Positions 36,061 to 49,075 of a stretch of DNA of 64,000 bases are shown here, piece by piece. This DNA is from Escherichia coli (GTDB lineage Bacteria; Pseudomonadota; Gammaproteobacteria; Enterobacterales; Enterobacteriaceae): assembly GCF_024700885.2 (NCBI RefSeq), contig NZ_CP117016.1; one strand, given 5' to 3'. The notes under the pieces are model-generated. The model was not told where the DNA came from and did not search any database. It saw only the letters and a program-made list of their open reading frames with translations. Position numbers and translations under genes: made by a program. How positions within the stretch are numbered: the stretch's first letter is position 1; the number at the start of each line of letters is the position of its first letter.

Positions 36061-38910
36061 CTACGAATCCCGCGATTTCCTGACCCTCTCGGCATATACC
36101 GTTAGCGTCTGTTTTATCACATCCAGCGTTACCGGCTTCGACAGGCAGCTGTCCATACCAGACTCCAGACACCGCTGCTTCTCTTCAGCCAACGCATTAG
36201 CAGTTACTCCGATTACCGGCAACGTCAGTCCCAACTGACGAATGCGTTGCGTCAAGCGGTAACCATCCATATTTGGCATGTTGACGTCGCTAAGCACGAT
36301 ATCAATATGATTCTTGCTAAGTACATTAAGCGCATCGACGCCATCATTCGCGGTTTTACATTGATAGCCCAACGATCCCAACTGATCTGCCAGAAGACGC
36401 CGGTTAATCGGATGATCATCCACAACCAGAATCATCATATCGTCGTTATCGCTGACCGCTTTGTCCGTCGACGGCAGAGCGTTAGCAGGATCATCGCTCT
36501 CCATCTCGATCAAATAAATACGCGCCAACAATGCCGGTAGCTCATGCGGGGCAGCCACACTGTGTACCCACTCCCCTGGCGCTTTCTCCAGCGGAATACC
36601 AATATGGCGACGACAGAAGGTCACTACCGCTCTACCCTGCCATTTTTTGCTCACTACCTCGTCAGTGATTAACACATCTTCGGGAGTCGGTTCCTGCCCT
36701 TCGTATGTTGTAACGACGATGCCGCTGCGCTGCAAACTGGTTTCCAGGAACTGACAGAGCGACGCATTGCGGACCGCCAGCCAGCAGCGTTTACCACTCA
36801 ACCCTTCCACGCCTTTTTTCTGCGGGTACTGAGCGCCGTACAACGGAATACGCACGGTAAACTGGCTGCCCATTCCCGGTTCTGAATCTACCGAGATGTC
36901 GCCGTCCATCATGCTGATCAGTTTTTCACAAATCGCCAGCCCCAGACCGGTCCCCTGGAAGTTACGCTGTACGCCCGTTCCGACCTGGAAGAAGGGATCA
37001 AACAAGCGCACCACTTCTTTCGCCGGAATCCCCACTCCGGTATCGCGAACGCGGATAGAGAGATAATCGCCATCAGCGCGAACATGCAAAACTATACAGC
37101 CGGTATCGGTGAATTTTATGGCGTTACTCAACAGGTTGGAGATGACCTGCTGTAAACGCATCGGGTCGCCATTTAAGGCCACTGGCACATCCGGTTCAAT
37201 AAAGCAGTACAAGCCTAGCTGCTTGCGTACCACCAGCGGTAAATAGTTGGCGGTGATGTGGTTCATCACTTCACGCGGTGAAAACTCACGCGGTTCGATC
37301 TTCAACTGTTCTGATTCAATTTTCGAGAAATCGAGAATATCGCTGATAATTTTCAACAACAGGCTGGAAGAGTTATTCATTGCCGTCACCAGCCGATCGA
37401 CGCCTTTCGGTAACTCTTTGGTTTGCAACAGATCCAGGTTACCGATAATGCCATACAGCGGCGTTCGCAGCTCATGACTGACGGTGGCAAGGAACATCGA
37501 TTTTGACTGGCTCGCCTGTTCCGCTGCTTGTGCCATCTCCTGCAACGACTCTTCCATCTTCACGCGCGAAGAAACATCCACCAGCACACAAATGGCCACG
37601 TTTTCATTACGATAGCGCGAATGGACGAAGCTGATTTGCAGATTGGTATTGTTGCTGGTCAGGACATCAACAAAATTGACCTGCTGCCCACAGATAATTT
37701 GTGTCAGCCGTTGGCGATCCTCATGCGTAAGCATATTGAGATAGGTATGCGCCAGTTCGTTACTTAAAATATTGACGCCATCAGCGGTACGCAAAATGCA
37801 GATACCCACTGGCGCGGAGGCGACAATCTTGCGATTAAACTGCTCATGTTCTTCCAGTCGCAGGGCGTCGCTTTCCGCCGGAATGAAAATACGTCGCTCG
37901 TACATCCGCGCGAGAGTAAACAATGCAGCTCCGGCAAGCACATTCAGCAAAATTGCGTTAAGGATCAACATGCGAATGCGTTCCAGCACCTTATCAACCG
38001 GCACCGAATACACGATGCTTAGCGATGAGGGTGGCAGATTTTTCTTCAGCACCAGCTCCCGGAACCCTTCCGTATAGCCAAACCAGGAGCGTTCCTGCAT
38101 CCAGCGAGGATCGCCCTTAATTTTGCTTTCTGGTCCGGTAAGCGAAATCAGGGTATGACCATTTTCATCAAGAATGGTAACCCCCATCGGCAACGTACCA
38201 GGTAAGAAAAAGTTCTCCATCCGGATGGTCTGCTCGACACCCAAAAGCGCCTGCAACCGGTTCGCCAGATAAACTGGCGTCAACGCGTAAAAATACCCGA
38301 CGCCAGGGCGCGGACCTTCGCTGATCCAGTAGAGGTTACTGCCGCTATCGTCTTGTGGTGCATTTCGATATTTATTGATGCGTTCATGCAAAGCTTTCAA
38401 CGCGGTATCGCGTTCCACTGGCATATCACGCAGACCGAAATTGGCCATGCAAAGGTTATCGCTGCCGATTAAAAATACCCGGTTGAGATCGTAAGCCGCA
38501 GAGAAATTATCGCGCCAGTAGCGCATAAACCACACCAATGACTCCAGAGAGCCTCGCCAGGTGTTACTCATTGCGGAACAATCGGAGTCGGCAAACAGCG
38601 GTTCAAACGCAGGCACATCCGCCTGCGTTTCTCGTCCACGCGGGGAAAGCACACCGTTTTCTGCCGATAAGCGATTTTCAGCTATGTACTTCAGCTCTTT
38701 CATCACATCAGAGGTACGTTGAATAAAGCGCTGAGCCTGATCGGAACTCAGATTAAATTCCTGACGAATTTCCGATTCTCGCTGATGTAACGCATTCACG
38801 ATGTAAAAAACGGATGAAAAAGCAATCAACAGCCAGAGCACTAACGCCAATGCTCGGAACATGTAGCGCGAGGCTTTCAGGGTTGTACGAAAAGAAGCAA
38901 GGTATTTCAA
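36061..38910 (-). CDS. rcsC: Hybrid sensor histidine kinase RcsC (949 aa)
   Basis: TM segments, HisKA H-box (SHELRTPL), HATPase, C-terminal receiver domain. Confidence 0.93.
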   Translation of the reverse strand: MKYLASFRTTLKASRYMFRALALVLWLLIAFSSVFYIVNALHQRESEIRQEFNLSSDQAQRFIQRTSDVMKELKYIAENRLSAENGVLSPRGRETQADVPAFEPLFADSDCSAMSNTWRGSLESLVWFMRYWRDNFSAAYDLNRVFLIGSDNLCMANFGLRDMPVERDTALKALHERINKYRNAPQDDSGSNLYWISEGPRPGVGYFYALTPVYLANRLQALLGVEQTIRMENFFLPGTLPMGVTILDENGHTLISLTGPESKIKGDPRWMQERSWFGYTEGFRELVLKKNLPPSSLSIVYSVPVDKVLERIRMLILNAILLNVLAGAALFTLARMYERRIFIPAESDALRLEEHEQFNRKIVASAPVGICILRTADGVNILSNELAHTYLNMLTHEDRQRLTQIICGQQVNFVDVLTSNNTNLQISFVHSRYRNENVAICVLVDVSSRVKMEESLQEMAQAAEQASQSKSMFLATVSHELRTPLYGIIGNLDLLQTKELPKGVDRLVTAMNNSSSLLLKIISDILDFSKIESEQLKIEPREFSPREVMNHITANYLPLVVRKQLGLYCFIEPDVPVALNGDPMRLQQVISNLLSNAIKFTDTGCIVLHVRADGDYLSIRVRDTGVGIPAKEVVRLFDPFFQVGTGVQRNFQGTGLGLAICEKLISMMDGDISVDSEPGMGSQFTVRIPLYGAQYPQKKGVEGLSGKRCWLAVRNASLCQFLETSLQRSGIVVTTYEGQEPTPEDVLITDEVVSKKWQGRAVVTFCRRHIGIPLEKAPGEWVHSVAAPHELPALLARIYLIEMESDDPANALPSTDKAVSDNDDMMILVVDDHPINRRLLADQLGSLGYQCKTANDGVDALNVLSKNHIDIVLSDVNMPNMDGYRLTQRIRQLGLTLPVIGVTANALAEEKQRCLESGMDSCLSKPVTLDVIKQTLTVYAERVRKSRDS

Positions 38911-39076
38911 AGGGGCGAAGCTCCGCCTCAGGTGACCGATGGAGTGTGGTTAAGGTAGCGGTAAAAGCGTGTTACCGCAATGTTCTCTCTTCTCTGGAAT
39001 ATGATACACCGCCGAGAAATCATCACCTTAACCTCTGATAATCGTCATATACCGGACAAGACTAGTGGATTTCAGC

Positions 39077-40903
39077 ATGCATTATATGAAGTGGATTTAT
39101 CCACGCCGCTTACGCAATCAAATGATCCTGATGGCAATCCTGATGGTCATTGTCCCAACGCTTACTATTGGTTATATCGTAGAAACGGAAGGACGTTCAG
39201 CAGTCTTATCTGAAAAAGAGAAAAAACTTTCTGCCGTGGTCAACCTGCTTAATCAGGCACTAGGCGATCGCTATGATCTCTACATCGACTTACCACGTGA
39301 GGAGCGTATCCGCGCATTAAATGCAGAACTTGCCCCCATTACCGAAAATATCACTCACGCCTTCCCTGGCATCGGCGCTGGTTATTACAACAAAACGCTG
39401 GATGCGATAATCACCTACGCGCCTTCAGCGCTATATCAGAATAATGTCGGCGTTACCATTGCCGCAGATCACCCTGGTCGCGAAGTCATGCGTACAAATA
39501 CCCCTTTGGTTTATTCAGGCAGGCAGGTGCGCGGCGATATTTTGAATTCAATGATCCCCATTGAGCGTAATGGTGAAATCCTCGGCTATATCTGGGCCAA
39601 TGAATTAACCGAAGATATTCGCCGCCAGGCCTGGAAAATGGATGTGAGGATTATCATTGTGCTCACCGCCGGTTTGCTGATAAGCCTGCTGTTGATTGTC
39701 CTTTTCTCCCGTCGCCTGAGCGCCAATATTGATATCATCACCGATGGCCTCTCGACTCTGGCGCAAAATATTCCCACTCGATTACCACAATTGCCCGGTG
39801 AAATGGGGCAAATCAGTCAGAGTGTTAACAACCTCGCCCAGGCACTGCGTGAAACGCGGACACTTAACGATCTGATTATTGAAAACGCTGCCGATGGCGT
39901 CATTGCCATTGACCGCCAGGGTGATGTAACCACCATGAACCCGGCAGCAGAAGTCATCACTGGCTATCAACGTCATGAACTGGTAGGGCAGCCTTACTCC
40001 ATGTTGTTCGACAATACTCAGTTCTACAGTCCAGTACTGGATACGCTGGAACATGGCACCGAACATGTAGCGCTGGAGATCAGTTTTCCAGGCCGTGACC
40101 GCACCATTGAACTCAGTGTCACTACCAGTCGTATTCATAACACGCATGGTGAAATGATAGGTGCTTTGGTGATTTTCTCTGATTTAACTGCCCGCAAAGA
40201 AACCCAGCGCCGCATGGCGCAAGCAGAACGCCTCGCCACACTGGGTGAGCTGATGGCTGGCGTCGCGCATGAAGTACGTAATCCGCTAACGGCTATTCGT
40301 GGTTATGTACAGATCTTGCGCCAACAAACCGGTGACCCAATACATCAGGAATATCTGTCCGTAGTACTCAAAGAAATCGATTCAATTAACAAAGTTATTC
40401 AGCAATTGCTCGAATTTTCACGTCCACGCCACAGTCAATGGCAACAAGTCAGCCTCAATGCATTGGTTGAAGAAACTCTGGTACTGGTACAAACCGCTGG
40501 CGTACAAGCGCGGATCGACTTCATAAGCGAACTGGATAATGAATTAAGCCCGATTAACGCCGATCGTGAACTGCTCAAACAGGTACTACTGAATATCCTG
40601 ATCAATGCCGTCCAGGCTATCAGTGCACGAGGGAAAATTCGCATTCGAACCTGGCAGTACAGCGACTCACAACAGGCCATTTCGATAGAGGACAACGGCT
40701 GTGGCATTGATCTCTCGCTGCAAAAAAAGATCTTCGATCCCTTTTTCACTACCAAAGCCTCAGGAACCGGGCTTGGTCTGGCGTTAAGTCAACGCATCAT
40801 TAATGCCCATCAGGGTGATATTCGCGTCGCCAGTTTGCCGGGCTACGGCGCAACCTTCACGCTTATTTTACCGATCAACCCGCAGGGAAATCAGACTGTA
40901 TGA
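39077..40903 (+). CDS. atoS: Sensor histidine kinase AtoS (608 aa)
   Basis: Start at MHYMKWIYPRRLRNQ (ATG 39077); PAS domain, H-box (AHEVRNPL), HATPase. Confidence 0.9.
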   Translation: MHYMKWIYPRRLRNQMILMAILMVIVPTLTIGYIVETEGRSAVLSEKEKKLSAVVNLLNQALGDRYDLYIDLPREERIRALNAELAPITENITHAFPGIGAGYYNKTLDAIITYAPSALYQNNVGVTIAADHPGREVMRTNTPLVYSGRQVRGDILNSMIPIERNGEILGYIWANELTEDIRRQAWKMDVRIIIVLTAGLLISLLLIVLFSRRLSANIDIITDGLSTLAQNIPTRLPQLPGEMGQISQSVNNLAQALRETRTLNDLIIENAADGVIAIDRQGDVTTMNPAAEVITGYQRHELVGQPYSMLFDNTQFYSPVLDTLEHGTEHVALEISFPGRDRTIELSVTTSRIHNTHGEMIGALVIFSDLTARKETQRRMAQAERLATLGELMAGVAHEVRNPLTAIRGYVQILRQQTGDPIHQEYLSVVLKEIDSINKVIQQLLEFSRPRHSQWQQVSLNALVEETLVLVQTAGVQARIDFISELDNELSPINADRELLKQVLLNILINAVQAISARGKIRIRTWQYSDSQQAISIEDNGCGIDLSLQKKIFDPFFTTKASGTGLGLALSQRIINAHQGDIRVASLPGYGATFTLILPINPQGNQTV

Positions 40904-42285
40904 CTGCTATTAATCGCATCCTTATTGTGGATGATGAAGATAATGTTCGCCGTATGCTGAGCACCGCTTTTGCACTACAAGGATTCGAAACACATTGTGC
41001 GAACAACGGGCGCACAGCATTACACCTGTTTGCCGATATTCACCCTGACGTGGTGTTGATGGATATCCGCATGCCAGAGATGGACGGCATCAAGACACTA
41101 AAGGAGATGCGCAGCCATGAGACACGGACACCCGTTATTCTGATGACGGCCTATGCTGAAGTGGAAACCGCCGTCGAAGCACTACGCTGCGGAGCCTTCG
41201 ACTATGTTATCAAACCGTTTGATCTCGATGAGTTGAATTTAATCGTTCAGCGCGCTTTACAACTCCAGTCAATGAAAAAAGAGATCCGTCATCTGCACCA
41301 GGCACTGAGCACCAGCTGGCAATGGGGGCACATTCTCACCAACAGCCCGGCGATGATGGACATCTGCAAAGACACCGCCAAAATTGCCCTTTCTCAGGCC
41401 AGCGTCTTGATTAGCGGTGAAAGCGGCACCGGGAAAGAGTTGATTGCCAGAGCGATTCACTACAATTCGCGGCGGGCAAAGGGGCCGTTCATTAAAGTCA
41501 ACTGCGCGGCGCTGCCGGAATCGTTGCTCGAAAGTGAACTGTTTGGTCATGAAAAAGGGGCATTTACTGGTGCACAAACCTTGCGTCAGGGATTATTTGA
41601 ACGTGCCAACGAAGGTACTCTGCTCCTCGACGAAATTGGCGAAATGCCGCTGGTACTGCAAGCCAAATTACTACGCATTCTGCAGGAACGGGAATTTGAA
41701 CGGATTGGCGGCCATCAGACCATAAAAGTTGATATCCGCATCATTGCTGCCACCAACCGCGACTTGCAGGCAATGGTGAAAGAAGGCACCTTCCGTGAAG
41801 ATCTCTTTTATCGCCTTAACGTTATTCATTTAATACTGCCGCCTCTGCGCGATCGCCGGGAAGATATTTCCCTGTTAGCTAATCACTTTTTGCAAAAATT
41901 CAGTAGTGAGAATCAGCGCGATATTATCGACATCGATCCGATGGCAATGTCACTGCTTACCGCCTGGTCATGGCCGGGAAATATTCGAGAGCTTTCCAAC
42001 GTTATTGAACGCGCCGTCGTGATGAATTCAGGCCCGATCATTTTTTCTGAGGATCTTCCGCCGCAGATTCGTCAGCCAGTCTGTAATGCTGGCGAGGTAA
42101 AAACATCCCCTGTCGGAGAGCGTAATTTAAAAGAGGAAATTAAACGCGTCGAAAAACGCATCATTATGGAAGTGCTGGAACAACAAGAAGGAAACCGAAC
42201 CCGCACTGCTTTAATGCTGGGCATCAGTCGCCGTGCATTGATGTATAAACTCCAGGAATACGGTATCGATCCGGCGGATGTATAA
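40900..42285 (+). CDS. atoC: Sigma54-dependent response regulator AtoC (461 aa)
   Basis: Receiver domain, AAA+ domain with GESGTGKE and GAFTGA motif, C-terminal HTH. Confidence 0.93.
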   Translation: MTAINRILIVDDEDNVRRMLSTAFALQGFETHCANNGRTALHLFADIHPDVVLMDIRMPEMDGIKTLKEMRSHETRTPVILMTAYAEVETAVEALRCGAFDYVIKPFDLDELNLIVQRALQLQSMKKEIRHLHQALSTSWQWGHILTNSPAMMDICKDTAKIALSQASVLISGESGTGKELIARAIHYNSRRAKGPFIKVNCAALPESLLESELFGHEKGAFTGAQTLRQGLFERANEGTLLLDEIGEMPLVLQAKLLRILQEREFERIGGHQTIKVDIRIIAATNRDLQAMVKEGTFREDLFYRLNVIHLILPPLRDRREDISLLANHFLQKFSSENQRDIIDIDPMAMSLLTAWSWPGNIRELSNVIERAVVMNSGPIIFSEDLPPQIRQPVCNAGEVKTSPVGERNLKEEIKRVEKRIIMEVLEQQEGNRTRTALMLGISRRALMYKLQEYGIDPADV

Positions 42286-42296
42286 CGCCAAAACTT

Positions 42297-42337
42297 GCTA
42301 TGCAGAAATTTGCACAGTGCGCAATTTTCTGCATAGC
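42297..42337. promoter_or_regulatory. AtoC-binding inverted repeat upstream of atoDAEB
   Basis: Near-perfect 41-bp palindrome gctatgcagaaatttgcacagtgcgcaattttctgcatagc. Confidence 0.8.
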
Positions 42338-42419
42338 CGCTCATTCTCCTTATAAATCCCCATCCAATTTATCCCTTCATATTCAATTAGTTAAATAACA
42401 ACATTCAATAATCTCATTC

Positions 42420-42434
42420 TGGCACTCCCCTTGC
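42420..42434 (+). promoter_or_regulatory. Sigma54 (-24/-12) promoter of atoDAEB
   Basis: TGGCAC-N5-TTGC matching the RpoN consensus, ~50 bp upstream of the atoD ATG. Confidence 0.8.
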
Positions 42435-42480
42435 TATTCCCTGACTGTACCCACAACGGTGTATGCAAGAGGGATAAAAA

Positions 42481-43143
42481 ATGAAAACAAAATTGATGAC
42501 ATTACAAGACGCCACCGGCTTCTTTCGTGACGGCATGACCATCATGGTGGGCGGATTTATGGGGATTGGCACTCCATCCCGCCTGGTTGAAGCATTACTG
42601 GAATCTGGTGTTCGCGACCTGACATTGATAGCCAATGATACCGCGTTTGTTGATACTGGCATCGGTCCGCTCATCGTCAATGGTCGAGTCCGCAAAGTGA
42701 TTGCTTCACATATCGGCACCAACCCGGAAACAGGTCGGCGCATGATATCTGGTGAGATGGACGTCGTTCTGGTGCCGCAAGGTACGCTAATCGAGCAAAT
42801 TCGCTGTGGTGGAGCTGGACTTGGTGGTTTTCTCACCCCAACGGGTGTCGGCACCGTCGTAGAGGAAGGCAAACAGACACTGACACTCGACGGTAAAACC
42901 TGGCTGCTCGAACGCCCACTGCGCGCCGACCTGGCGCTAATTCGCGCTCATCGTTGCGACACACTTGGCAACCTGACCTATCACCTTAGCGCCCGCAACT
43001 TTAACCCCCTGATAGCCCTTGCGGCTGATATCACGCTGGTAGAGCCAGATGAACTGGTCGAAACCGGCGAGCTGCAACCTGACCATATTGTCACCCCTGG
43101 TGCCGTTATCGACCACATCATCGTTTCACAGGAGAGCAAATAA
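42481..43143 (+). CDS. atoD: Acetate CoA-transferase alpha subunit AtoD (220 aa)
   Basis: Recognised CoA-transferase subunit A sequence; operon position. Confidence 0.92.
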
Positions 43144-43793
43144 TGGATGCGAAACAACGTATTGCGCGCCGTGTGGCGCAAGAGCTTCGTGATGGTGACA
43201 TCGTTAACTTAGGGATCGGTTTACCCACAATGGTCGCCAATTATTTACCGGAGGGTATTCATATCACTCTGCAATCGGAAAACGGCTTCCTCGGTTTAGG
43301 CCCGGTCACGACAGCGCATCCAGATCTGGTGAACGCTGGCGGGCAACCGTGCGGTGTTTTACCCGGTGCAGCCATGTTTGATAGCGCCATGTCATTTGCG
43401 CTAATCCGCGGCGGTCATATTGATGCCTGCGTGCTCGGCGGTTTGCAAGTAGACGAAGAAGCAAACCTCGCGAACTGGGTAGTGCCTGGGAAAATGGTGC
43501 CCGGTATGGGTGGCGCGATGGATCTGGTGACCGGGTCGCGCAAAGTGATCATCGCCATGGAACATTGTGCCAAAGATGGTTCAGCAAAAATTTTGCGCCG
43601 CTGCACCATGCCACTCACTGCGCAACATGCGGTGCATATGCTGGTTACTGAACTGGCTGTCTTTCGTTTTATTGACGGCAAAATGTGGCTCACCGAAATT
43701 GCCGACGGGTGTGATTTAGCCACCGTGCGTGCCAAAACCGAAGCTCGGTTTGAAGTCGCCGCCGATCTGAATACGCAACGGGGTGATTTATGA
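43143..43793 (+). CDS. atoA: Acetate CoA-transferase beta subunit AtoA (216 aa)
   Basis: CoA-transferase subunit B; overlapping start with atoD stop. Confidence 0.92.
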   Translation: MDAKQRIARRVAQELRDGDIVNLGIGLPTMVANYLPEGIHITLQSENGFLGLGPVTTAHPDLVNAGGQPCGVLPGAAMFDSAMSFALIRGGHIDACVLGGLQVDEEANLANWVVPGKMVPGMGGAMDLVTGSRKVIIAMEHCAKDGSAKILRRCTMPLTAQHAVHMLVTELAVFRFIDGKMWLTEIADGCDLATVRAKTEARFEVAADLNTQRGDL

Positions 43794-45112
43794 TTGGTCG
43801 CATATCGCGTTTTATGACGCGTTTTGTCAGCCGGTGGCTTCCCGATCCACTGATCTTTGCCATGTTGCTGACATTGCTAACTTTCGTGATCGCGCTTTGG
43901 TTAACACCACAAACGCCGATCAGCATGGTGAAAATGTGGGGTGACGGTTTCTGGAACTTGCTGGCGTTTGGTATGCAGATGGCGCTTATCATCGTTACCG
44001 GTCATGCCCTTGCCAGCTCTGCTCCGGTAAAAAGTTTGCTGCGTACTGCCGCCTCCGCCGCAAAGACGCCCGTACAGGGCGTCATGCTGGTTACTTTCTT
44101 CGGTTCAGTCGCTTGTGTCATCAACTGGGGATTTGGTTTGGTTGTCGGCGCAATGTTTGCCCGTGAAGTCGCCCGCCGAGTACCCGGTTCTGATTATCCG
44201 TTGCTCATTGCCTGCGCCTACATTGGTTTTCTCACCTGGGGTGGCGGTTTCTCTGGCTCAATGCCTCTGTTGGCTGCAACACCGGGCAACCCGGTTGAGC
44301 ATATCGCCGGGCTGATCCCGGTGGGCGATACTCTGTTCAGTGGTTTTAACATTTTCATCACTGTGGCGTTGATTGTGGTGATGCCATTTATCACCCGCAT
44401 GATGATGCCAAAACCGTCTGACGTGGTGAGTATCGATCCGAAACTACTCATGGAAGAGGCTGATTTCCAAAAGCAGCTACCGAAAGATGCCCCACCATCC
44501 GAGCGACTGGAAGAAAGCCGCATTCTGACGTTGATCATCGGCGCACTCGGTATCGCTTACCTTGCGATGTACTTCAGCGAACATGGCTTCAACATCACCA
44601 TCAATACCGTCAACCTGATGTTTATGATTGCGGGTCTGCTGCTACATAAAACGCCAATGGCTTATATGCGTGCTATCAGCGCGGCAGCACGCAGTACTGC
44701 CGGTATTCTAGTGCAATTCCCCTTCTACGCTGGGATCCAACTGATGATGGAGCATTCCGGTCTGGGCGGACTCATTACCGAATTCTTCATCAATGTTGCG
44801 AACAAAGACACCTTCCCGGTAATGACCTTTTTTAGTTCTGCACTGATTAACTTCGCCGTTCCGTCTGGCGGCGGTCACTGGGTTATTCAGGGACCTTTCG
44901 TGATACCCGCAGCCCAGGCGCTGGGCGCTGATCTTGGTAAATCGGTAATGGCGATCGCCTACGGCGAGCAATGGATGAACATGGCACAACCATTCTGGGC
45001 GCTGCCAGCACTGGCAATCGCCGGACTCGGTGTCCGCGACATCATGGGCTATTGCATCACTGCCCTGCTCTTCTCCGGCGTCATTTTCGTCATTGGTTTA
45101 ACGCTGTTCTGA
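43790..45112 (+). CDS. atoE: Short-chain fatty acid transporter AtoE (440 aa)
   Basis: Polytopic membrane protein; operon position. Confidence 0.9.
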   Translation: MIGRISRFMTRFVSRWLPDPLIFAMLLTLLTFVIALWLTPQTPISMVKMWGDGFWNLLAFGMQMALIIVTGHALASSAPVKSLLRTAASAAKTPVQGVMLVTFFGSVACVINWGFGLVVGAMFAREVARRVPGSDYPLLIACAYIGFLTWGGGFSGSMPLLAATPGNPVEHIAGLIPVGDTLFSGFNIFITVALIVVMPFITRMMMPKPSDVVSIDPKLLMEEADFQKQLPKDAPPSERLEESRILTLIIGALGIAYLAMYFSEHGFNITINTVNLMFMIAGLLLHKTPMAYMRAISAAARSTAGILVQFPFYAGIQLMMEHSGLGGLITEFFINVANKDTFPVMTFFSSALINFAVPSGGGHWVIQGPFVIPAAQALGADLGKSVMAIAYGEQWMNMAQPFWALPALAIAGLGVRDIMGYCITALLFSGVIFVIGLTLF

Positions 45113-45142
45113 CGGCAACCCTACAGACAGAAGGAATAAAAA

Positions 45143-46327
45143 ATGAAAAATTGTGTCATCGTCAGTGCGGTACGTACTGCTATCGGTAGTTTTAACGGTT
45201 CACTCGCTTCCACCAGCGCCATCGACCTGGGGGCGACAGTAATTAAAGCCGCCATTGAACGTGCAAAAATCGATTCACTACACATTGATGAAGTGATTAT
45301 GGGTAACGTGTTGCAAGCCGGGTTGGGGCAAAATCCGGCACGTCAGGCACTGTTAAAAAGCGGGCTGGCAGAAACGGTGTGCGGATTCACGGTCAATAAA
45401 GTGTGTGGTTCGGGTCTTAAAAGTGTGGCGCTTGCCGCCCAGGCAATTCAGGCAGGTCAGGCGCAAAGCATTGTGGCGGGGGGTATGGAAAATATGAGTT
45501 TAGCGCCCTACTTACTCGATGCAAAAGCACGCTCTGGTTATCGTCTTGGAGACGGACAGGTTTATGACGTAATCCTGCGCGATGGTCTGATGTGCGCCAC
45601 CCATGGTTATCATATGGGGATTACCGCCGAGAACGTGGCCAAAGAGTACGGAATTACCCGAGAAATGCAGGATGAACTGGCGCTACATTCACAGCGTAAA
45701 GCGGCAGCCGCAATTGAGTCCGGTGCTTTTACAGCCGAAATCGTCCCGGTAAATGTTGTCACTCGGAAGAAAACCTTCGTCTTCAGTCAAGACGAATTCC
45801 CGAAAGCGGATTCTACGACTGAAGCGTTAGGCGCATTGCGCCCGGCCTTCGATAAAGCAGGAACAGTCACCGCCGGGAACGCGTCTGGTATTAACGACGG
45901 TGCTGCCGCTCTGGTGATTATGGAAGAATCTGCGGCGCTGGCAGCAGGCCTTACCCCCCTGGCTCGCATTAAAAGTTATGCCAGCGGTGGCGTGCCCCCC
46001 GCATTGATGGGTATGGGGCCAGTACCTGCCACGCAAAAAGCGTTACAACTGGCGGGGCTGCAACTGGCGGATATTGATCTCATTGAGGCTAATGAAGCAT
46101 TTGCTGCACAGTTCCTTGCCGTTGGGAAAACCCTGGGCTTTGATTCTGAGAAAGTGAATGTCAACGGCGGGGCCATCGCGCTCGGGCATCCTATCGGTGC
46201 CAGTGGTGCTCGTATTCTGGTCACACTATTACATGCCATGCAGGCACGCGATAAAACGCTGGGGCTGGCAACACTGTGCATTGGTGGCGGCCAGGGAATT
46301 GCGATGGTGATTGAACGGTTGAATTAA
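45143..46327 (+). CDS. atoB: Acetyl-CoA acetyltransferase (thiolase II) AtoB (394 aa)
   Basis: Thiolase motifs (VNKVCGSG active Cys, C-terminal [12 protein letters not shown]). Confidence 0.93.
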
Positions 46328-46407
46328 CAAATCAGAACCACTCGCATGGCGGGTGGTTATCTGTTTCAGCCACGATGCGCCAGAAACAGACTAAAGTCAG
46401 AAAAGTA

Positions 46408-46431
46408 AAGGGCCGAATTTTCGGCCCTTTT
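46408..46431. terminator. Bidirectional rho-independent terminator between convergent atoB and gyrA
   Basis: AAAGGGCCGA-attt-TCGGCCCTTT hairpin flanked by A/T runs on both sides. Confidence 0.85.
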
Positions 46432-46438
46432 AACTTGA

Positions 46439-49075
46439 TTACTCGTCAGCGTCGTCTGCGACATCATCGTCGCTTTCCACTTCCGGAGCGATTTCATCGT
46501 CCCCTTCCGCGGCACTGCCATCGATGGTATCCAGATCTTCCTCGTCAACCGGTTCAGCAACACGTTGCAGACCCACTACGTTTTCATCTTCCGCAGTACG
46601 GATGAGGATCACGCCCTGGGTGTTACGACCTACGATGCTGATTTCCGAAACGCGAGTACGTACCAGCGTACCGGCATCAGTGATCATCATGATCTGGTCG
46701 CAGTCATCTACCTGCACCGCGCCAACCACTAAACCGTTACGTTCGGTAACCTTGATGGAGATAACCCCTTTCGTCGCACGCGACTTAGTCGGGTATTCCG
46801 CCACTGCGGTACGTTTACCATAACCGTTCTGCGTTGCGGTGAGGATTGCGCCATCGCCACGAGGCACGATCAGAGAGACGACTTTATCGCCTTCACCTAA
46901 GCGAATACCGCGAACACCGGTGGTGTTGCAGCCCATCGCACGGACAGAAGACTCTTTAAAGCGCACCACTTTACCTTCGGCGGAGAACAGCATTACTTCA
47001 TCTTCGCCGCTGGTCAGGTCAACGCCGATCAGCTCATCGCCTTCAACCAGTTTGATCGCCACTTTACCGGCGGTACGCAGACGGTTGAATTCGGTGAGGA
47101 CGGTTTTCTTAACAGTACCGTTAGCGGTCGCCATGAAGACTTTCACGCCTTCTTCAAACTCGGTCACCGGCAGGATCGCGGTGATACGTTCGTCCTGCTC
47201 CAGCGGCAGCAGGTTGACAATCGGACGACCGCGCGCGCCACGAGTGGCTTCCGGCAACTGATAGACTTTCATCGAATAGACGCGACCACGGCTGGAGAAG
47301 CACAGAATATGGTCGTGGGTGTTCGCCACCAGCAGTCGGTCAATAAAGTCTTCTTCTTTAATACGTGCGGCAGATTTGCCTTTCCCGCCACGACGCTGCG
47401 CTTCGTATTCAGAAAGCGGCTGATACTTCACGTAGCCCTGGTGAGAGAGCGTCACAACCACATCTTCCTGAGTGATCAGATCTTCCAGGTTGATGTCTGC
47501 GCTGTTGGCGGTGATTTCAGTGCGACGTTTGTCACCGAACTGTTCACGAACCAGTTCCAGCTCTTCGCGGATCACTTCCATCAGACGATCGGCACTGCCA
47601 AGAATACGCAGCAGTTCTGCGATCTGATCCAGCAGCTCTTTATATTCGTCGAGCAGTTTTTCGTGCTCAAGGCCGGTCAGTTTCTGCAAACGCAGATCCA
47701 GAATCGCCTGGGCTTGCTGTTCGGTCAGGTAGTACAGACCGTCACGCACGCCGAACTCTGGCTCCAGCCATTCCGGACGCGCAGCATCATCGCCCGCACG
47801 TTCGAGCATGGCGGCAACGTTGCCCAACTGCCACGGATTAGCAACCAGCGCAGTTTTCGCTTCTGCAGGCGTCGGCGCATGACGGATCAGTTCGATGATC
47901 GGGTCGATGTTCGCCAGCGCCACGGCTAATGCTTCAAGGATATGAGCACGATCGCGAGCTTTACGCAGTTCGAAAATAGTACGACGGGTCACCACTTCAC
48001 GGCGGTGACGAACAAACGCCGCGATGATGTCTTTCAGGTTCATGATCTTCGGCTGACCATGGTGCAATGCCACCATGTTGATACCGAAAGAAACCTGCAA
48101 CTGGGTCTGGGAGTAGAGGTTGTTAAGCACAACTTCACCGACCGCATCGCGTTTCACTTCAATCACGATGCGCATACCGTCTTTGTCAGACTCGTCACGC
48201 AGCGCGCTGATGCCTTCCACGCGTTTTTCTTTTACCAGTTCCGCAATCTTCTCGATCAGGCGCGCTTTGTTCACCTGATACGGAATTTCGTGGACGATAA
48301 TGGTTTCACGTCCGGTTTTGGCGTCAACTTCCACTTCAGCACGGGCGCGGATATATACCTTGCCGCGACCGGTACGGTAAGCTTCTTCAATACCGCGACG
48401 ACCATTAATGATTGCCGCCGTCGGGAAGTCCGGCCCAGGAATGTGTTCCATCAGCCCTTCAATGCTGATGTCTTCATCATCGATATACGCCAGACAACCG
48501 TTGATGACTTCCGTCAGGTTGTGCGGCGGGATGTTGGTTGCCATACCTACGGCGATACCGGAAGAACCGTTCACCAGCAGGTTAGGAATTTTGGTTGGCA
48601 TGACGTCGGGAATTTTTTCCGTGCCGTCATAGTTATCAACGAAATCGACCGTCTCTTTTTCGAGATCGGCCATCAGTTCATGGGCAATTTTCGCCAGACG
48701 GATTTCCGTATAACGCATTGCCGCCGCAGAGTCGCCGTCGATGGAACCGAAGTTACCCTGACCGTCTACCAGCATGTAACGCAGCGAGAATGGCTGCGCC
48801 ATACGGACGATCGTGTCATAAACCGCCAAGTCACCATGGGGATGGTATTTACCGATTACGTCACCAACGACACGGGCAGATTTTTTATAGGCTTTGTTCC
48901 AGTCATTGCCTAGTACGTTCATGGCGTAAAGTACGCGACGGTGTACCGGCTTCAGGCCATCTCGGACATCTGGCAGCGCACGGCCAACAATGACCGACAT
49001 CGCATAATCCAGATAGGAGCTCTTCAGCTCTTCCTCAATGTTGACCGGTGTAATTTCTCTCGCAAGGTCGCTCAT
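46439..49075 (-). CDS. gyrA: DNA gyrase subunit A (878 aa as encoded), carrying S83L
   Basis: [19 protein letters not shown]-terminus, active-site region, acidic C-terminal tail; codon 83 reads TTG (Leu), codon 87 GAC (Asp). Confidence 0.95.

Follow-up and report, generated by a model that had tools for sequence, protein, structure and literature searches.

An intact atoSC-atoDAEB module with a K-12-like AtoC operator and sigma-54 promoter in an Escherichia coli genome

The AtoC palindrome of the atoDAEB promoter is reportedly the work of Matta et al. in 2007, and the sigma-54 ChIP-seq listing in which the same promoter figures as site OS21 is that of Bonocora et al. in 2015. Two AtoC sites have been verified, GCTATGCAGAAATTTGCACA on the plus strand at -184 to -165 and GCTATGCAGAAAATTGCGCA on the minus strand at -163 to -144, both counted from the atoD start (PMC3118216, Table 5). 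The passages of that article that summarise earlier work describe a 40-bp palindrome that controls acetoacetate inducibility as well as the binding of AtoC in vitro and in vivo, and report AtoC binding in K-12 by EMSA and ChIP (PMC3118216). At the promoter itself, the 17-mer CTGGCACTCCCCTTGCT is sigma-54 ChIP-seq site OS21 of K-12, on the plus strand and 35 nt from atoD, marked as previously confirmed (PMC4591121); moreover, a gSELEX peak of the RpoN holoenzyme, obtained in vitro, falls in the atoC>atoD spacer (Shimada et al., 2021; PMC8743547), and a study from 2024 has employed a reporter driven by the atoDAEB promoter, dependent on acetoacetate and on AtoSC, in cells grown with 10 mM acetoacetate (PMC10963238). 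The architecture is that of NtrC at glnAp2, ZraR at zraP and PspF at pspA, in which dyad activator sites precede a -24/-12 promoter by more than 100 bp. An A+T-rich spacer is likewise shared with the promoters of the NtrC family, and a candidate IHF site within it would be another point in common. AtoC has the receiver, AAA+ (GAFTGA) and HTH domains of this family. Unlike its relatives, however, the ato system has an operator sequence of its own, its own signal (acetoacetate, via AtoS) and its own regulated pathway.

We have examined the ato locus in a 64-kb stretch of E. coli DNA, hereafter the window. The local gene order is rcsD-rcsB, rcsC (opposite strand), atoS-atoC, atoD-atoA-atoE-atoB and gyrA (opposite strand), and the module comprises the following genes, with the scores of their products on curated NCBIfam models:

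39077-40903, plus strand: atoS, sensor histidine kinase, 608 aa (NF008468, AtoS equivalog, 996.9 bits against a cut-off of 646)
40900-42285, plus strand: atoC, NtrC-family sigma-54 enhancer-binding response regulator, 461 aa (NF008469, 1001.6 bits against 714)
42481-43143, plus strand: atoD, acetate CoA-transferase alpha subunit, 220 aa (NF007394, equivalog, 444.6 bits against 315)
43143-43793, plus strand: atoA, CoA-transferase beta subunit, 216 aa (TIGR02428, 306.5 bits against 243.55)
43790-45112, plus strand: atoE, putative short-chain fatty acid transporter, 440 aa (TIGR00366, 749.2 bits against 575.75)
45143-46327, plus strand: atoB, acetyl-CoA acetyltransferase (thiolase II), 394 aa (TIGR01930, 493.5 bits against 240.55)

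The identity of the proteins was judged by the curated cut-offs, which all six exceed, and the six genes have the lengths of their K-12 counterparts with no internal stops; the original prediction that they are intact is thus borne out. AtoC passes the cut-off of the AtoC equivalog and not those of NtrC or ZraR, its score on the NtrC model TIGR01818 being 476.9 bits, below the cut-off of 558.6. Relative to K-12, there are 5 substitutions in AtoS, 2 in AtoC, 1 in AtoD and 5 in AtoB, and none in AtoA or AtoE. Those in AtoC, A66T and A403S, both lie outside the motifs checked; AtoC retains D55, H73, the Walker A motif GESGTGKE (residues 173-180), GAFTGA (220-225) and DEIGE (244), and AtoS retains H398. 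We take H398 of AtoS and D55 of AtoC, numbered as in the AtoSC literature, to be the residues of the phospho-relay. The end of atoS and the beginning of atoC share 4 nt, and the atoC stop (42283-42285) is followed by a spacer of 195 bp (42286-42480) that leads to the atoD ATG at 42481. Farther down, atoD and atoA overlap at 43143, atoA and atoE overlap at 43790-43793, and a gap of 30 nt precedes atoB, a spacing consistent with a single atoD-atoA-atoE-atoB transcript.

With the K-12 locus the window shares the gene order, the gene lengths, a 41-bp operator, the sigma-54 17-mer and the distances of these elements to the atoD ATG; downstream of atoB, however, gyrA is found in the window and yfaP in K-12. 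Within the 195-bp spacer the two sequences differ at five single bases, 42287, 42400, 42402, 42405 and 42439, none of which falls in the operator, in the -24/-12 core or at a specified position of the IHF-like site described below. The spacer alleles of the window are the common ones in E. coli, and at 42439 (position -7) it carries the majority allele, K-12 being the outlier.

The upstream part of the spacer is occupied by a single conspicuous element, which begins 12 nt past the atoC stop:

42297-42337, strand not assigned: AtoC operator (upstream activating sequence), two 20-bp sites that form a 41-bp inverted repeat

The arms, as delimited by a repeat finder, are 42297-42316 (GCTATGCAGAAATTTGCACA) and 42318-42337 (TGCGCAATTTTCTGCATAGC), each of 20 nt; they are complementary at 18 of 20 positions (90%) and are separated by a centre of 1 nt. 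No other inverted repeat in the 64 kb combines 20-nt arms with two mismatches at most and a loop of 0-5 nt, and 200 versions of the window simulated with a first-order Markov model yielded no comparable one. Both arms match the half-site GCTATGCAGAAAWTTGCRCA without a mismatch, and a search of the window that allowed up to 3 mismatches returned just these two, where 0.03 would be expected by chance. The arms are letter-identical to the verified AtoC sites and lie at the same offsets from the atoD ATG, so that the element spans exactly -184 to -144 (PMC3118216, Table 5). Judged by its sequence and position, 42297-42337 is the AtoC operator of atoDAEB. A further dyad inside each 20-bp arm (TGCA-N6-TGCA) was considered and dropped, and we make no claim of an internal dyad, because just the self-complementary TGCA tetramers match.

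The rest of the spacer holds three further features, the last two of them predictions:

42420-42434, plus strand: sigma-54 promoter core, an exact match to TGGCAC-N5-TTGC, with the -24 GG at 42421-42422 and the -12 GC at 42433-42434
42446-42480, plus strand: predicted transcription start (about 42446) and 35-nt leader with the ribosome-binding site AAGAGGG, placed by -24/-12 geometry
42381-42393, plus strand: candidate IHF-like site, ATTCAATTAGTTA, with 1 mismatch to WATCAANNNNTTR, centred at about -59

The GG and GC dinucleotides of the core are exactly 10 bp apart, and the match is the only one in the window. In 64 kb, a mean of 0.23 exact matches is expected by chance, and 22 of 100 shuffles contained at least one; a single match is therefore within chance, and it is the placement that makes this one significant. 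Within the 195-bp atoC-atoD spacer the core is on the coding strand, 110 bp downstream of the palindrome centre and with the C of its -12 GC 47 nt before the atoD ATG, and by our own arithmetic such a placement has a probability of about 4e-4 (roughly 0.23 x 195/128000). Moreover, atoC, directly upstream, encodes a GAFTGA-bearing AAA+ enhancer-binding protein for the promoter, and positions 42419-42435 are identical to the OS21 17-mer. Five other stretches of the window match the core with one mismatch, 6.7 being expected; they are at chance level and were set aside. Taking the C of the -12 GC (42434) as position -12 would put the start of transcription at about 42446, and the resulting 35-nt leader agrees with the distance between OS21 and atoD (PMC4591121). 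A promoter scan detected no sigma-70-like promoter on the plus strand of the spacer (42286-42480), which argues, at the level of consensus, against a second, sigma-70-type atoD promoter.

The operator lies upstream of the promoter, with 110 bp between the two centres, and would span -149 to -109 relative to the predicted start. The original prediction spoke of a near-perfect 41-bp inverted repeat, an AtoC palindrome, followed by a sigma-54 promoter; the comparison with the published AtoC sites finds sequence and offsets identical, and repeat, palindrome and promoter all stand, with the caveat that repeat and core do not directly adjoin but are 82 nt apart. A gap of this size is as expected, because the AtoC site is of the enhancer type. 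The gap is A+T-rich and contains the IHF-like site, for which about 0.09 matches per spacer are expected by chance, and which may be a DNA-bending site.

Conservation of the spacer was assessed in an alignment of nine alleles, those of the window, K-12, CFT073, ST131, four other E. coli and the diverged GTDB representative E69. Only 1 of the 41 columns of the palindrome is variable, and none of the 15 of the -24/-12 core, as against 25 of 82 in the stretch between them; for palindrome and core together (1 of 56) the difference gives a Fisher p of about 1e-5, which we regard as supportive rather than strict, because the nine alleles are close relatives and their columns not fully independent. 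The one variant in the palindrome, T>A at 42325 in E69, increases the symmetry of the arms. The specified positions of the IHF-like site are invariant in all nine alleles, and the two variable columns within it are N positions. The segment 42435-42480, with the promoter-proximal bases and the atoD leader, is likewise near-invariant (2 of 46 columns variable), that is, conserved to the degree of the promoter and far above the spacer upstream. A scan of 100,044 species representatives with the pattern TATGCAGAAA-N16-18-TTTCTGCATA gave one match in Escherichia, that of E69. The other 28 stretches retrieved, from Firmicutes, Bacteroidales and similar contigs, were treated, uninspected, as unrelated palindromes, and the exact sequence of the outer arms thus appears, on this pattern, to be specific to Escherichia.

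The palindrome could act mainly, or additionally, at the level of RNA, as a hairpin in read-through atoSC mRNA that terminates or pauses transcription or stabilises the 3' end, and so insulates atoDAEB, a reading that we consider unlikely. The palindrome does lie directly downstream of atoC, and the segment 42280-42360 folds at -23.3 kcal/mol (z-score of -5.15; none of 200 shuffles folded as well). Any perfect DNA palindrome folds in this manner automatically, however, and the hairpin is therefore not independent evidence; moreover, the stem is followed by CCGCTCATTCTCC and not by a U-tract, a terminator scan gave no call, and there is no Rfam match in the interval searched (38900-46500). The published data, as far as the summary in PMC3118216 goes, are about DNA that is bound by AtoC and required for induction. 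A role of the palindrome in RNA would be secondary at best. In a combined function, which we think unlikely, the DNA enhancer would double, in read-through atoSC mRNA, as an RNA insulator or stabiliser between the regulator and the structural operons, through a hairpin of -23 kcal/mol that defines or stabilises the 3' end; if true, a single palindrome would do both jobs.

It is very improbable, in our estimate, that the elements are intact and the module is nevertheless non-functional in this strain, owing to a disabling substitution in AtoS, AtoC or AtoB or to the lack of rpoN or ihfAB. These three proteins do carry 5, 2 and 5 substitutions relative to K-12, and rpoN and the ihf genes lie outside the window, but the substitutions are outside the catalytic motifs checked and mostly conservative, the annotation of the complete E. 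coli strain 1190 genome contains identical protein sequences, and the spacer and -7 alleles of the window are those common in E. coli, with K-12 as the outlier at 42439. As for the palindrome and the -24/-12 match being chance intergenic features, the frequency with which shuffles yield an exact core (22 of 100) is the one figure in favour, and the probability that we assign to it is close to nil: neither the inverted repeat (0 of 200 simulated windows) nor the pair of half-sites (2 observed, 0.03 expected) is of a kind that chance supplies, and placement, strand, conservation and identity to experimentally defined sites rule it out. A chance origin of palindrome and promoter match is refuted by the simulations, the conservation and the identity to published sites taken together.

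The segment 42297-42434 is thus almost certainly the control region of atoDAEB, working as described for K-12, and no sequence feature that contradicts such control was seen at the locus. On the model drawn from the K-12 literature, to which we owe AtoC binding, sigma-54 occupancy and acetoacetate induction, AtoS would sense acetoacetate, autophosphorylate on H398 and pass the phosphate to D55 of AtoC, and phosphorylated AtoC would occupy both 20-bp sites of the palindrome (42297-42337; about -149 to -109) while a closed complex of sigma-54 RNA polymerase is poised at 42420-42434. The 82 bp of A+T-rich DNA in between would then loop, probably bent by IHF at 42381-42393, allowing the AAA+ ring of AtoC, with its Walker A motif and GAFTGA loop, to touch sigma-54; ATP hydrolysis would open the promoter, and transcription would proceed from about 42446. 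Both the part given to IHF and the exact start site are our suggestions from the layout of the spacer. The products would be the acetoacetyl-CoA transferase AtoD-AtoA, the transporter AtoE and the thiolase AtoB, and together they would turn acetoacetate and short-chain fatty acids into acetyl-CoA. What the window itself contributes is the identity of the elements to the K-12 sites, the intact genes and motifs and the selective conservation, and we infer that the ato module would be active in this strain.

The statement that the ato locus is variably present in E. coli proved accurate. The 7.25-kb module matches 3931 of 5426 complete E. coli genomes (72%), 3898 of them over at least 80% of its length, and the atoC-atoD spacer alone has a match in 3923; the locus is absent from about 28%. 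In ato-less genomes, such as that of O157:H7 ATCC 43890, rcsC is joined directly to yfaP. In the rcsC-atoS spacer (38911-39076) the breakpoint is shared, at about 38987-38989, some 79 bp upstream of rcsC. A common breakpoint suggests that the entire 7.4-kb atoSC-atoDAEB block was inserted or deleted once, long ago, and did not decay repeatedly. E. coli PCP06171 (L040, 7001-8167) has lost ato independently: an IS1A cuts atoS short after about 414 nt, and the deletion extends into a yfaQ-like DUF2300 gene. In the K-12 isolate MC1000 (L002, 1438-2894), an IS2 lies inside rcsC, annotated as a pseudogene, an event unrelated to the window.

The downstream border of the module also deserves description. 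At the atoB-gyrA junction (46328-46476), gyrA follows atoB directly, an arrangement present in 26 of the 5426 complete genomes, and the cluster yfaP-yfaQ-alpha-2-macroglobulin-yfaT-yfaA, which separates the two genes in K-12, is missing. Similarity to ordinary E. coli ends at about 46338 and restarts at about 46476; because it restarts just inside gyrA, the acidic C-terminal tail of GyrA is altered (46439-46476, minus strand), the protein having 878 aa in place of the usual form of 875 aa that ends in APEVDVDDEPEEE. The 878-aa form presumably resembles the GyrA of Salmonella, and this likeness would suggest that the tail segment is ancestral or imported. Codon 83 of gyrA (48827-48829, minus strand) encodes the S83L change, a classic quinolone-resistance substitution, and D87 is wild type. 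Over 18,195 bases the window has 2 mismatches to strain 1190 (NZ_CP023386.1), both in gyrA: 48828 (A in place of G, in codon 83) and 46679. The junction with its altered GyrA tail, and S83L, are more unusual than the ato control region.

The control region, for its part, is already known and is present here in its ordinary, intact form. Its elements match experimentally defined K-12 sites, which justifies the view of the original prediction that it is a clean positive control for regulatory-site calling, and it offers a valid calibration point for the window: operator and sigma-54 promoter were called, from the sequence alone, at their exact coordinates, and similar calls elsewhere in the window therefore earn some credit. 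As to the organism, this strain, nearly identical to the canine E. coli 1190, has, by its gene content, the full genetic capacity for the catabolism of acetoacetate and short-chain fatty acids, which is missing from about 28% of sequenced E. coli.
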